DNA of 64,000 nucleotides from the NCBI RefSeq assembly GCF_030384885.1, contig NZ_CP128613.1, one strand, 5' to 3'. The stretch's first letter is position 1, and every line of letters begins with the position of its first letter. Below the pieces are notes generated by a model. The model saw only the letters and a list, made by a program, of their open reading frames with translations, made no database searches and was not told the DNA's origin. This DNA comes from Escherichia coli (GTDB taxonomy: Bacteria; Pseudomonadota; Gammaproteobacteria; Enterobacterales; Enterobacteriaceae). Made by a program: the position numbers and the translations under genes. Shown piece after piece: positions 43,070 to 46,954 of the stretch.

Positions 43070-43735
43070 TTAACTCGCCTGCAAAGCGTTGATTTCGGAT
43101 TTATCTGCCAGTCTTTTCAACAGCATATTGAGTAATACGCCATACATTGGCAGGAAGAAAACGATACTGATTAACACTTTGAAACAGTAATCGACCAGCG
43201 CGATTTCCATCCAGTGTTCAGCCATAAAGGCATCTGGGCTGCGCCAGAAGGCAATGAAGAAGAAGGCCAGCGTGTCGCTGACGTTACCAAACAGGGTGGA
43301 AGCCGTCGGTGCCAGCCACCAGCGACGACTCTGACGCAGGCGGTTAAAAACGTGCACGTCGAGGATTTGCCCCAGCGCGTAGGCCATGAAACTGGCGGTG
43401 GCGATACGGGCGACAAACAGGTTGAAGTGGGCGAGCGCGCCGAATCCCTGCCAGGAACCCATATAGAACAGCGACGAGATGACGTAGGAGATCAGTAACG
43501 CCGGGATCATCACCGCAAAGATGATACGACGGGCCAGCGGTGCGCCAAAAATACGCACAGTCAGGTCGGTAGCAAGGAAAATAAACGGAAAGCTAAACGC
43601 GCCCCAGGTGGTATGGAAACCAAAAATGGATACGGGAAGCTGAACCAGATAGTTACTGGAGGTGATCACCAACAGATGAAATAACGATAACCAGAACAAC
43701 GCTTTATAGCGTTGAGTTTGCGAGAAAACGTTCAT
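43070..43735 (-). CDS. yhhQ: queuosine-precursor transporter family membrane protein
   Basis: 221-aa polytopic ORF at the K-12 yhhQ position. Confidence 0.8.
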   Translation of the reverse strand: MNVFSQTQRYKALFWLSLFHLLVITSSNYLVQLPVSIFGFHTTWGAFSFPFIFLATDLTVRIFGAPLARRIIFAVMIPALLISYVISSLFYMGSWQGFGALAHFNLFVARIATASFMAYALGQILDVHVFNRLRQSRRWWLAPTASTLFGNVSDTLAFFFIAFWRSPDAFMAEHWMEIALVDYCFKVLISIVFFLPMYGVLLNMLLKRLADKSEINALQAS

Positions 43736-43954
43736 ATTGTACCTTTTTGATTAACCATTGGGGTGAGGGAACCCAATACGTACGACACGTCTGTTACCTT
43801 AACATAATAACGTGCTGACCCTTTTTTCGAGCCGCCGCATGATACTGCTTTACGTTGACAATGCAATGGTTAATTTTCGCGCAATCGTTAACCTGGTTTG
43901 CTTACGGACTCACAGGGCGTAAACTAGCGCCGTTTTTTATGTGATGAGAAGAAA

Positions 43955-44200
43955 ATGACCGATCTCTTTTCCAGCCCTGACCACACACTCGACGCACTTG
44001 GCCTGCGCTGCCCGGAACCCGTGATGATGGTGCGCAAAACTGTGCGCAATATGCAACCTGGCGAAACGTTGCTGATTATTGCTGATGATCCGGCGACGAC
44101 ACGCGATATTCCTGGGTTTTGTACCTTTATGGAACACGAACTGGTTGCTAAAGAAACGGATGGACTGCCTTATCGTTATTTGATTCGTAAATCGGGGTAA
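43955..44200 (+). CDS. tusA: sulfur carrier protein TusA
   Basis: 81 aa with CPEP active-site motif ([12 protein letters not shown]). Confidence 0.9.
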
Positions 44201-44304
44201 GGTGGATCAGGCTAGCGGACCGATCGCGCTCAATTTTGCGGCTTGCAACCGGTTTGTAGGACGGATAAAACGTTCAAGCTGCATCTGGCGATACGGTGCG
44301 CAAT

Positions 44305-44391
44305 GCCTGATGCGACGCTGTCGCGTCTTATCATGCCTACGAGTTCAATGCCCTGTGTAGGCCAGATAAGGCGTTTACGCCGCATCCGGCA
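44305..44391. repeat. REP/BIME-type extragenic palindromic repeats
   Basis: GCCTGATGCGACG...CATGCCTAC and GTAGGCCAGATAAGGCGTTTACGCCGCATCCGGCA units. Confidence 0.75.
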
Positions 44392-44414
44392 CGCAAACGT
44401 AATGGAATGCACAA

Positions 44415-44723
44415 ATGGATTATTTAATTCCAGTTTGTCTGGTATTGCTGGGATTGCTCGCGATCTTCACCCCCAATTGGCTGATCCCTGTTTTTATCGT
44501 CGTGGGGGGATGGCTGGGGGTACTTGCCTGGGGTTGGCTCTGGCTAATGATTTTTTTACCTTTACTTAACGGTGTCGGGCTTGCTTATGCCCTGTGGTTG
44601 ATGTTCAAAAGGCCATCCATAGCATCCCGCCTGGTTGCTGCATGCTGTGTTATCTCCGTCATTCTGATGTTAGCGCTTTATTATGCTTTCCTGACTATGC
44701 CGCCGTTCCCGCCTCAGCACTAA
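44415..44723 (+). CDS. hypothetical small hydrophobic membrane protein (102 aa)
   Basis: ORF with 3 predicted TM helices, Trp/Leu-rich, followed directly by a strong hairpin; weak ribosome-binding site. Confidence 0.35.
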   Translation: MDYLIPVCLVLLGLLAIFTPNWLIPVFIVVGGWLGVLAWGWLWLMIFLPLLNGVGLAYALWLMFKRPSIASRLVAACCVISVILMLALYYAFLTMPPFPPQH

Positions 44724-44748
44724 GCCTGATAGCCAGAGGCTATCAGGC
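44724..44748. terminator. strong hairpin between the small ORF and convergent zntA, possibly a bidirectional terminator
   Basis: GCCTGATAGCC-aga-GGCTATCAGGC perfect 11-bp stem; T-rich sequence follows on the plus strand. Confidence 0.55.
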
Positions 44749-44755
44749 AACACTT

Positions 44756-46954
44756 TTACTTCCTGCGCAACAATCTTAACGCATTCGCTGTCACCAGCAC
44801 CGTCGCACCCGTATCTGCCAGCACCGCCAGCCATAGTCCGGTCATCCCTAACAGCGTTGTGACGAGGAAGATCCCTTTCAGCCCCAGCGCAATGGTGATG
44901 TTCTGGCGGATATTGGCGTGAGTGGCGCGTGCCAGTTCAATCATCTGCACCAGGCCGCGCAGGTGGTTATGGGTTAATGCAGCGTCGGCGGTTTCCAGCG
45001 CCACATCTGTGCCACTGCCCATTGCAATCCCTATGGCGGCAGCTTTCATGGCGGGCGCGTCGTTAATACCGTCACCGACCATCGCCAGAGGCGCATGTTG
45101 ATTCAGCTCGGTCACCGCTTTGACTTTATCTTCTGGTAATAGGCCCGCTTTAAATTTCAGCCCCAGTTCACCGGCGATTGCCGCCGCTGCGTGTGGATTA
45201 TCGCCAGTGAGGATCACTCCTTTGACGCCCAGGGCGCTCAGTTCGCTGATGGCAGTTGCGGCGTCGGCGCGCAGGGTATCCTGCAATGCAATGACACCCA
45301 GCACTTCATCGTTACGCACCACCAGTACTACCGTTTGCCCGGCGCTTTCCAGTTCGTTAATTAAACCAGCAAATGCAACAGCCGGATGTTTTCCGGCAGC
45401 GCATATCAACACGCGCTCACCGTTAATCAGTGCTTCAATACCAGACCCGACCAGCGCCCGCTGTGATTCGGCGGCGGGAATGGCGAGTTCAGCAACCTGT
45501 GCTTCGCGTACGATGGCTTGCGCCAGTGGATGCGTCGCGCCTTGCTCGACCGCCGCTGCCAGTGTCAGCAGTTCAGATTCACTAATACCCGTTGCCGGAT
45601 GAATCGCGGTAACGCGCGGTTTACCGACGGTCAGCGTGCCGGTTTTATCAAACGCCACCTGGGTAACACGACCTAGTTGTTCCAGCGCCGCACCGCCTTT
45701 AATCAACGCCCCATGACGCGCTGCTGCCGCCAGCCCGGAGGTGATCGCCGCAGGTGTTGAGATCACCAGCGCACACGGGCAGCCAATCAGCAGCAGCGTC
45801 AGCCCTTTATAAATCCACTCCTGCCAGCTTGCGGCAAACAGCAGCGGTGGCACCAGCGTCACCAGCAGGGCGACGGCCATAATCGCTGGCGTGTAAATAC
45901 GGCTGAAACGGTCGATAAACCGCTCAATGGGCGCGCGGCGCTCTTCGGCTTCTTCGATCAGTTTCAGAATCCGGTCAATGGCGCTGGCACCCGGTTCTGA
46001 CAGCACTTCCAGCGTTACCAGACGGTCTACGCTGGTGGCGCCTGCAGGAACTTTATCACCCGTCGCGCGCTCCACCGGAATGGATTCGCCGGTCAGGGCG
46101 CTTTCATCAAAACTGGCAAAGGGCGAGAGCAGTTTACCGTCGGCAGGTAAACGCCCACCTGCCGCAACTTCGATAACATCGCCCGGACGCAGGCTGTTAA
46201 TTGCTACCTCTTCACGCTTGCCATTACGCAGGCGCGTGGCGGTTTCCGGTTTCAGCGCCATTAACGCGCTGACCCCTTGACGCGCGCGGCTGGCGGCCCA
46301 GCCTTCCAGTCGTTCACCAATCAAAAACAGCAGCAACACCATCGCAGCTTCAGCCGTTGCGCCAATAAACAGCGCACCAATAGCGGCTACGCTCATTAAG
46401 GTTTCAATAGCGAAGTAGCTGCCGGATTTGATCAGCCGTAATGCCTGACGAGCAATCGGGTACAGCCCAACCAGCGTGGTCGCGATAAACGCCAGTTGAC
46501 CGAACGGATGATTAAACTGCTCCAGACCCCAGCTGATTGCCATCAACACGATTAGCGTAATCAGCGGCAGATTCTCTTTCAGGCGTGATGCTTGCGGTTC
46601 TACGGCTGCCTGTTCATCGCGCAGGGAATAGCCCGCTTTTTGCACCGCAGATTCAACTTGTGCACGGATGTCATTGTCGGCATCAACCACCAGTTTTTCG
46701 GTGGCGAACAGCACCTGCACCTGATTCACGCCTGCAAGCTGGCGCACGGCATTTTCTACCTTGCGCGCGCAGGCGGCGCAGTCCATGCCGCTGACTTTCC
46801 AGCTATAGCGGGTGCCGGAGACGTTTTCAGAGAGCGTTGGCGTGCTGGAACATGCGCCGTCGCAGCAACAGTCGTTGACGTTCTGTACCGTGGTTAGCGG
46901 TTTGAACGCAGAAAATTGAGGGGCTTTCTTGCCGTGATTGTCAGGAGTCGACAT
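44756..46954 (-). CDS. zntA: Zn(II)/Cd(II)/Pb(II)-translocating P-type ATPase
   Basis: 732 aa; GMDCAAC metal-binding motif, CPC in a TM helix, DKTGTLT phosphorylation site, GDGINDAP. Confidence 0.95.
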   Translation of the reverse strand: MSTPDNHGKKAPQFSAFKPLTTVQNVNDCCCDGACSSTPTLSENVSGTRYSWKVSGMDCAACARKVENAVRQLAGVNQVQVLFATEKLVVDADNDIRAQVESAVQKAGYSLRDEQAAVEPQASRLKENLPLITLIVLMAISWGLEQFNHPFGQLAFIATTLVGLYPIARQALRLIKSGSYFAIETLMSVAAIGALFIGATAEAAMVLLLFLIGERLEGWAASRARQGVSALMALKPETATRLRNGKREEVAINSLRPGDVIEVAAGGRLPADGKLLSPFASFDESALTGESIPVERATGDKVPAGATSVDRLVTLEVLSEPGASAIDRILKLIEEAEERRAPIERFIDRFSRIYTPAIMAVALLVTLVPPLLFAASWQEWIYKGLTLLLIGCPCALVISTPAAITSGLAAAARHGALIKGGAALEQLGRVTQVAFDKTGTLTVGKPRVTAIHPATGISESELLTLAAAVEQGATHPLAQAIVREAQVAELAIPAAESQRALVGSGIEALINGERVLICAAGKHPAVAFAGLINELESAGQTVVLVVRNDEVLGVIALQDTLRADAATAISELSALGVKGVILTGDNPHAAAAIAGELGLKFKAGLLPEDKVKAVTELNQHAPLAMVGDGINDAPAMKAAAIGIAMGSGTDVALETADAALTHNHLRGLVQMIELARATHANIRQNITIALGLKGIFLVTTLLGMTGLWLAVLADTGATVLVTANALRLLRRK

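Follow-up and report, generated by a model that had tools for sequence, protein, structure and literature searches.

A 102-aa open reading frame (ORF) lies between tusA and zntA in the stretch of Escherichia coli DNA analysed here (64,000 nt, hereafter the window). According to the ORF list, it occupies positions 44415-44723 of the + strand, with an ATG start, 102 codons and a TAA stop. Upstream, on the same strand, is tusA, encoding the sulfurtransferase TusA (43955-44200), and the convergent downstream neighbour on the - strand is zntA, which encodes a Zn/Cd/Pb P-type ATPase (44756-46954); both genes were taken from the ORF list and RefSeq, the latter for tusA through the annotation of an identical stretch. 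The original prediction had called the ORF unannotated-looking, but the RefSeq annotation of the identical stretch already carries it as hypothetical protein WP_000385061.1, and PGAP annotates it in 60 of 60 sampled genomes. As it is already in the databases as a hypothetical protein, the finding is a modest one. The product is Trp/Leu-rich and hydrophobic, as predicted (Leu 22/102, Trp 6/102, GRAVY 1.47), and its only charged residues are D2, K65, R66, R72 and H102. The ORF list, RefSeq, alignments, an AlphaFold model and hydropathy together suggest a small polytopic membrane protein.

Searches of Pfam (at E <= 1), NCBIfam, PHROGs and PADLOC gave no family match for this protein, and we found no paper mentioning it. 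A hit to Mnh/Pha antiporter subunit F (NF009243), which reached 17.1 bits (E = 0.007) over 47 residues against a cutoff of 95 bits, was rejected as compositional. Identity as a phage holin, a type I toxin or a defence membrane protein was rejected on the lack of any PHROGs or PADLOC match. A tblastn search against phages likewise gave no match, and the single 'plasmid' match is a 4.9-Mb record that is evidently a chromosome, so a phage or plasmid origin was also rejected.

Flanking repeats, putative expression signals and the shared hairpin

The interval between tusA and the ORF contains a cluster of REP/BIME-type palindromic repeats (44259-44394, + strand), recognised from Rfam matches to naRNA4 (REP325) and from copy number. 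The two matches, at 44259-44337 (52.7 bits) and 44360-44394 (34.1 bits), are both below the naRNA4 gathering score of 59.5. REP/BIME elements are imperfect palindromes of about 35 nt that fit the REP consensus and have many copies per genome; the repeats here were assigned to them on the Rfam matches and on copy number, the median being 6 places in each E. coli genome. The palindromes end at 44394, 20 nt before the ATG, in agreement with the prediction that the ORF begins just after a REP element, and the ORF-proximal REP is conserved in all Escherichia loci examined. The ORF itself is found at one place per genome and overlaps no REP; it is not a by-product of the repeats.

The gap between tusA and the ORF is 214 nt long and filled with REP hairpins. 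No sigma-70-like promoter was found within it, and the ORF is probably transcribed from tusA, by read-through across the REP cluster; the same cluster could block this read-through. Translation would start from a weak Shine-Dalgarno-like GGAA located 7-8 nt 5′ of the ATG (44404-44407, + strand). Its GGA is invariant in nine of nine loci compared and the sequence further upstream is variable; GGAA is a putative ribosome-binding site.

Between the convergent stops of the ORF and zntA, folding and a repeat scan revealed a hairpin (44724-44748) with a 3-nt loop. Its arms (44724-44734 and 44738-44748) form an 11-bp stem with 100% complementarity, and its free energy is -20.6 kcal/mol (z = -3.9 versus shuffles). 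The perfect 11-bp stem had been predicted correctly, but it follows the ORF stop with a gap of 0 nt rather than 1. Nor does the hairpin belong to the ORF as its own: it is shared with the convergent zntA, beginning 7 nt past that gene's stop. It occurs once in the window, versus 0 occurrences expected by chance, and this single occurrence led us to reject a dispersed repeat. Past the stem the + strand reads AACACUUUU and the - strand UUAGUG, with no adjacent U-tract on either, and the hairpin was not reported by a terminator scan. Although the stem is strong, we thus rejected a canonical Rho-independent terminator, in which a U-tract directly follows a GC-rich stem. The hairpin is conserved in Escherichia loci without a DUF2004 gene; in E. 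whittamii its loop is inverted (AGA to TCT), and loci L005 and L012 show one mismatch. That the arms are inverted repeats around the E. albertii DUF2004 gene was considered and rejected, since the right arm is absent near zntA in locus L006. The hairpin may be a shared 3′-end structure of both convergent genes, acting as an RNA-end stabiliser or as a weak bidirectional terminator.

Conservation and distribution of the frame

The ORF is intact at 102 codons and syntenic, following tusA and converging on zntA, in five other Escherichia species representatives. These GTDB representatives are those of E. albertii, E. whittamii and three other species, and the order yhhQ-tusA-ORF-zntA is found in all of them. 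Across the window and 8 other loci, covering at least six Escherichia lineages, the frame has 102 codons, 0 stops and 0 indels. There are no indels in its 306 nt, whereas both flanks are riddled with them; frame length is identical across lineages that are 10-14% divergent in DNA, while the adjacent non-coding DNA is heavily rearranged.

The substitution pattern is specific to this frame. Pairwise dN/dS of the ORF (frame +0) is 0.29-0.71, with a pooled value of 0.40, and synonymous change is in excess (binomial p ~0.001 for the most divergent pairs). The remaining frames either have dN/dS of 0.75-1.6 or contain 23-49 stops, and the sole other frame with a low ratio is an antisense frame that shares third positions and has 23 stops. 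The overlapping frames at 44243-44569 (108 aa) and 44594-44779 (61 aa) and the antisense frames were rejected as non-coding on the basis of stops in other species or of dN/dS of at least 0.75. Variable sites are enriched at third codon positions (19/15/36 by position; chi-square p = 0.005). Synonymous divergence is alike in both halves of the gene, which argues for constraint on the protein and not on the DNA. The N-terminal half has dN/dS of up to 0.57, and an overall value of 0.4 is relaxed for a bacterial gene. The amino-acid changes among alleles are conservative hydrophobic swaps. At least 1000 contigs carry one exact sequence, and 410 carry that of the window. Frameshifted or truncated alleles are on record (P0023, P0026-P0028, P0030, P0031 and P0035), but the frameshifted clusters have 1-4 members each and intact alleles dominate.

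The gene is nevertheless rare in E. coli, being carried by 317 of 5426 complete genomes (about 94% are without it, K-12-like genomes among them); carrier strains include 2013C-4282 and O145:H28 RM13516. In the ATCC 25922-type spacer the REPs and the left arm of the hairpin persist, and the ORF is missing; such gene-less E. coli spacers look like deletion derivatives. We suggest that the ancestor of Escherichia already had the gene and that most E. coli lineages then lost it by deletion; the gene would accordingly be dispensable. The tusA-zntA spacer, with at least five structural states, is a small hotspot and a useful marker of Escherichia lineage history.

The rarity of the gene raises the question of whether the frame is non-functional, either a decaying relic or spurious in a repeat-rich spacer, and conserved merely through close kinship. 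Its loss in most E. coli genomes, the frameshifted and truncated alleles, a dN/dS that is only moderately low, the failure to match any family, domain or paper, the lack of a predicted promoter and the weak ribosome-binding site would all fit such a history. However, kinship alone does not account for an indel-free frame of constant length across such DNA divergence, beside rearranged non-coding neighbours, or for a synonymous excess confined to this frame. The conservative nature of the hydrophobic swaps is also at odds with decay, and homologues at 32-37% identity, far beyond neutral drift, fill the same slot downstream of tusA. We therefore regard a non-functional frame as unlikely. The original prediction had left the choice between a small membrane protein and an artefact in a repeat-rich spacer; the intact frame and the frame-specific ratio favour the former and contradict the latter. 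On these sequence comparisons we judge the ORF to be a genuine gene that encodes a protein, rather than an artefact of the spacer. The correction is that the frame is more than spacer noise. With it the accessory genome of Escherichia gains one more real, lineage-restricted small membrane protein, and no long-standing open question is touched.

Relatives, predicted topology and a probable helix duplication

When 1.84 billion representatives were scanned exhaustively with HMMER, only one distant relative turned up beyond the Escherichia sequences, a metagenomic protein that is 37% identical to the ORF product, and a search with this relative (P0039) as sole query returned only itself. The gene thus appears confined to the genus Escherichia, plus this one relative, and the conservation that had been proposed as a check across Enterobacteriaceae is borne out, with constraint, only within the genus. 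Short relatives occur in some non-coli Escherichia and in a related enterobacterium; the 83-aa form starts 35 nt and the 84-aa form 27 nt downstream of tusA. At the distant relative's locus (L009), the homologue again lies after tusA, and the contig's far end carries a partial gene that is not zntA-like; linkage to tusA is the one feature common to all three family branches. The residues P25, W33, G55, P67, R72, L73, S81, L84, M85 and L88 are invariant in the family, and the alignment contains no conserved Cys or polar motifs. These proteins form a tiny family, without a family model, that occupies the slot downstream of tusA and is older than the genus Escherichia.

An AlphaFold model (pLDDT 74), built on a shallow alignment of 17 sequences, has helices at residues 4-18, 21-39, 41-65 and 69-94, and the hydropathy profile is consistent with four hydrophobic helices, where about three transmembrane helices had originally been predicted. 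K65, R66 and R72 form the only basic cluster, located in the loop between helices 3 and 4, and no Glu or Asp lies inside any helix, D2 being the sole acidic residue. With its basic residues confined to loops between predicted helices, the ORF product is modelled as an integral membrane protein. It would insert into the inner membrane, and by the positive-inside rule the K65/R66/R72 loop would face the cytoplasm. A fold comparison of the model gave no informative match.

The N-terminal part carries a probable internal tandem duplication of 57 nt, or 19 codons (44418-44537, + strand), detected as a self-match. Residues ~3-21 (YLIPVCLVLLGLL...) resemble residues ~22-40 (WLIPVFIVVGGWL...), and the best self-match is 34 of 57 nt at offset 57, a score reached by 0 of 500 codon shuffles; since the shuffle maximum was 33, this statistic is borderline. 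The 83-aa and 84-aa relatives lack exactly those 19 residues, and the 102-aa form is thus most likely the short form plus a 19-residue duplication of its first helix. Such a duplication would have added an N-terminal helix and converted a three-helix short form into a four-helix form, and by the positive-inside rule the N-terminus would have moved from the cytoplasm (MKY...) to the periplasm (MDY...), with the C-terminus predicted to lie outside in both forms. This would be a compact natural case in which a three-helix protein gained a fourth helix and the charge at its N-terminus changed along with it (MKY to MDY).

Possible roles and likeness to known systems

The explanation that accounts best for these observations, and one that we consider likely, is a coding gene for a four-helix inner-membrane protein, belonging to a family in the tusA-downstream slot and mostly deleted in E. 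coli. The product would most likely serve as a small subunit that assists or modulates a larger protein in, or associated with, the membrane, rather than as an autonomous transporter or enzyme, because its membrane-embedded part has no conserved polar or charged residues. Our best guess is an accessory protein of the inner membrane that is dispensable and is translated from transcripts reading through from tusA, and we infer the accessory role from size, composition and analogy only.

The neighbouring genes suggest two possible partners. The product could be a membrane anchor or adaptor for TusA that links this cytoplasmic sulfur carrier with a process in the membrane, on the model of the TusA-like proteins YeeD and YedF, which are encoded beside the membrane proteins YeeE and YedE. 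The gene is on the tusA strand with no promoter-like site between, the short relatives follow tusA at operon-like spacing, and the linkage extends to every family branch. On the other hand, most E. coli have a working TusA but lack this protein. The cytoplasmic surface of the product would also be nearly nil (only the KRPSIASR loop, to which the short forms add an N-terminus of 2-3 residues), with no conserved Cys or polar motif in the family, and a Pfam scan gave no homology to YeeE/YedE. We consider a TusA anchor very improbable.

Alternatively, the product could be a small modulator of ZntA that tunes Zn/Cd/Pb efflux where the gene is kept, as KdpF does for KdpB and MgtS/MgtR for MgtA. Small hydrophobic partners of P-type ATPases are well established as a class, and in Escherichia the ORF always adjoins zntA. 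However, the two genes are convergent and not co-transcribed, the distant homologue sits after tusA on a contig whose partial gene at the far end does not resemble zntA, ZntA works in the 94% of E. coli without the gene, and the known modulators are single helices shorter than 50 aa. A ZntA modulator likewise seems very improbable. A broader proposal, which we also think unlikely, is an unrecognised, fast-evolving family of small membrane proteins (three-helix short forms of 83-84 aa and the four-helix 102-aa form) that works with the TusA sulfur relay or with ZntA, in which helix duplication changed the topology and a homopolymer T8/T9 tract might switch the 84-aa paralogue on and off. If true, it would offer a natural example of topology change, with the N-terminus going from inside to outside.

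Among known systems, the preferred reading, a small inner-membrane accessory protein, resembles the uncharacterised small polytopic 'y-gene' inner-membrane proteins of E. coli (~80-110 aa, 3-4 helices). The ORF product is like them in size and in being extremely hydrophobic, has a short basic loop in the cytoplasm as they do, is encoded at a chromosomal site between core genes and lacks enzymatic motifs. Unlike them, it belongs to no sequence family and its gene is absent from K-12-like genomes. SMR proteins (EmrE/SugE, PF00893) are similar in having ~105-110 aa and four transmembrane helices, compared with 102 aa and four predicted helices here. EmrE carries a conserved membrane-embedded Glu14, however, and the ORF product has no such membrane-embedded acidic residue and no Pfam match; with both the PF00893 match and the helix-1 Glu absent, we rejected SMR membership. 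The likeness to KdpF, MgtS and MgtR lies in a small hydrophobic protein being encoded beside a P-type ATPase gene. Those proteins consist of one helix in under 50 aa, and they share transcription or regulation with their targets. The ORF product, at 102 aa and with four predicted helices, shows no homology to them; its gene converges on zntA and is tusA-linked in the relatives. Finally, the spacer has the same REP palindromes and presence/absence polymorphism as the REP/BIME-flanked intergenic regions of E. coli, but the ORF itself overlaps no REP and is unique in the genome.

The tusA-zntA spacer

The 102-codon ORF at 44415-44723 (+), which runs from ATG to TAA, is a real, uncharacterised and genus-restricted small membrane protein gene, already listed in databases as hypothetical. 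It had been described as unannotated-looking, but a stretch identical to 44150-44800 of the window is present in E. coli 2013C-4282, where PGAP annotates the ORF as hypothetical protein WP_000385061.1. We counted 410 contigs with the exact protein and at least 1000 with a near-identical member of its cluster; all of these records call it hypothetical or uncharacterised.

The gene order in the window is yhhQ (43070-43735, -), tusA (43955-44200, +), the ORF and convergent zntA (44756-46954, -). The 555-bp tusA-zntA spacer contains, besides the ORF, a cluster of REP-type palindromes (44259-44337 and 44360-44394; sub-threshold Rfam matches to naRNA4/REP325), whose sequences have a median of six copies per E. 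coli genome, and a perfect hairpin with an 11-bp stem and 3-nt loop (44724-44748). The original prediction was right about the ORF and this stem; the 1-nt gap that it reported is absent, as the hairpin directly abuts the stop codon. Nor is the hairpin the ORF's own: it lies 7 nt beyond the zntA stop, and is therefore common to both genes. It has a free energy of -20.6 kcal/mol (z = -3.9), occurs once within the window, lacks a U-tract on either strand and was not reported by the terminator scan. In E. whittamii (L008:3310-3334) the arms are identical and the loop is reverse-complemented (TCT versus AGA), the pattern, to judge from sequence, that a palindrome leaves when it is flipped by template switching. 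On the tusA strand, approximately 15 nt 5′ of the tusA start, lies a separate T-run hairpin that resembles a terminator (GGCGTAAACTAGCGCC GTTTTTTATG; 43916-43940, +). It may belong to a leader or attenuator, or have arisen by chance; the expectation from shuffles is 1.5 sites of this kind.

Selection on the reading frame

Conservation and dN/dS across Enterobacteriaceae had been proposed as a check on the frame. The frame is intact across Escherichia, while full-length relatives beyond this genus were not found by protein search, which recovered sequences of 83-97% identity in E. coli, E. marmotae, E. albertii, Escherichia sp. E4742 and unclassified Escherichia strains. When one genome of each GTDB species was scanned, five more loci emerged (E. 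albertii, E. whittamii, Escherichia sp. E1V33, Escherichia sp. MOD1-EC7003 and SCPM-O-B-8794, a divergent strain labelled E. coli), each with an intact frame for 102 aa in the yhhQ-tusA-ORF-zntA context. Aligned at the DNA level, the loci show many indels in both flanks and none in the 306 coding bases. The dN/dS ratio (Nei-Gojobori) is 0.29-0.71 for pairs and 0.40 pooled, indicating constraint in the ORF frame. The other five frames give 0.75-1.6, except for the antisense frame with common third positions (0.41), which contains 23 stops over six sequences; this control supports the ORF frame alone. The synonymous excess is significant in divergent pairs (binomial p ~0.001), and variable sites at codon positions 1, 2 and 3 number 19, 15 and 36 (p = 0.005). 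Of the two readings originally offered, a small membrane protein or an artefact of a repeat-rich spacer, the latter is contradicted by the lack of indels and the frame-specific dN/dS.

Synonymous divergence is alike in the two halves of the ORF (pS 0.13 and 0.17), while non-synonymous divergence is smaller in the C-terminal half (ratio 0.30 versus 0.57 N-terminally), so the constraint is on protein rather than DNA. Frameshifted or truncated alleles form rare clusters of 1-4 sequences, and intact clusters have up to 147 members. In the allele alignment, P0023, P0026, P0027 and P0030 start in the +1 frame (MECTNGLFNSS...; window frame 44243-44569) and then rejoin the ORF frame. The C-terminal half, which is conserved, is retained in such alleles, suggesting that constraint is strongest on the last two helices. 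We conclude that the ORF is probably a real gene under moderate, relaxed purifying selection.

Predicted protein structure and probable helix duplication

As predicted, the protein is Trp/Leu-rich and extremely hydrophobic (22 Leu, 6 Trp; GRAVY 1.47); its only charged residues are D2, K65, R66, R72 and H102. Instead of about three transmembrane helices, AlphaFold2 predicts four (4-18, 21-39, 41-65 and 69-94) from a 17-sequence alignment, with mean pLDDT 74 and pTM 0.60. The positive-inside rule would place the K65/R66/R72 loop in the cytoplasm and both termini in the periplasm. An autonomous transport or catalytic role is unlikely, because no conserved polar or charged residue lies within the membrane.

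HMMER, run exhaustively against 1.84 billion cluster representatives, recovered a single credible distant relative other than sequences and fragments from Escherichia: P0039 (83 aa; 37% identity to ORF residues 21-102). On its metagenomic contig of 1.4 kb, the gene for P0039 follows tusA by 35 nt, and the TusA encoded there is 89% identical to that of E. coli. The only two further hits below the threshold are P0041, a 36-aa fragment of Escherichia type, and P0040, a repetitive protein of 360 aa that we took to be a compositional match. A profile search found P0056 (84 aa; 32% identity to the window protein, 43% to P0039), encoded 27 nt after tusA and 172 nt upstream of the 102-aa copy, in the order tusA, 84-aa gene, 102-aa gene, convergent zntA. 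This paralogue occurs in some non-coli Escherichia, intact at L012:4001-4255 and frameshifted at L005:2575-2828, and was found in none of 5426 complete E. coli genomes. The frameshift, in a T-run (T8; T9 in the intact copy), breaks the gene into two frames of 49 and 42 aa and could reflect slipped-strand on/off switching or an assembly error.

On the simplest reading, the 102-aa protein would be the short form plus a tandem duplication of its first helix. Two independent directions back this reading: residues 2-20 of the long form are exactly those missing from both short forms, and residues ~3-21 recur at ~22-40, with a DNA self-match of 34/57 nt at offset 57 that none of 500 codon shuffles reached (maximum 33). 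The N-terminal change from MKY (basic, expected inside) in the short form to MDY (acidic, expected outside) in the long form is in keeping with this duplication.

Spacer history and possible role

The ORF is present in 317 of the 5426 genomes, always as a single chromosomal copy, and is clearly dispensable. Its alleles there range from 90% to 100% identity. The E. coli O145:H28 allele (L010:811-1119) shares 98% identity with that of Escherichia sp. E1V33 (L004:3001-3309) and only 92% with the window allele, which would seem a wider spread than is likely within E. coli and may point to old allelic lineages or to recombination at this locus between clades of Escherichia.

The spacer has at least five structural states across Escherichia. 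In most E. coli it is 101 bp long with a GC-rich palindrome; ATCC 25922-like strains have the REPs and no ORF. Of the 12 bases formed by the stop-proximal base and the left arm of the hairpin, 11 survive in their spacer, which therefore derives by deletion from an ancestor with the ORF. The palindrome, CCCTCTCCCCAGAG(A/G)GGCGAGGGG, which is presumably BoxC-like, lies just after tusA in K-12-like and ATCC 25922-like spacers (L002/L003 1552-1610) and is missing from the window (44198-44260). E. albertii, MOD1-EC7003 and two of the 5426 E. coli genomes (GF4-3 and 6EVA) have an extra minus-strand gene of 164-165 aa between the ORF and zntA. Genes of this kind at L006:3369-3866, L011:1880-2374 and L009:688-1176 (all -) encode 162-165 aa. 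PGAP labels the extra gene DUF2004 domain-containing; a Pfam scan gave no match at E ≤ 0.1, and we found no mention of DUF2004 in the literature. Since a homologue (64% identical) follows P0039 in the distant relative, the ancestral order was likely tusA, small membrane protein and convergent DUF2004-like gene, with later lineage-wise loss of pieces.

Conservation upstream of the ORF covers the adjoining REP and ~25 nt preceding the ATG, including an invariant GGA at -8 nt. Because a promoter scan found no sigma-70-like promoter across 43700-44900, and the short relatives are spaced operon-like to tusA, tusA transcripts would run on through the REP hairpins into the ORF, a route that probably holds expression low, with translation from a weak ribosome-binding site. 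Our best guess is a small subunit, accessory or modulatory, that would serve a larger protein in or associated with the membrane. By proximity its partner might be TusA or ZntA, but both proteins function in the many E. coli, the majority, that lack the gene. The locus is of modest interest for its probable helix-duplication history and polymorphic spacer.
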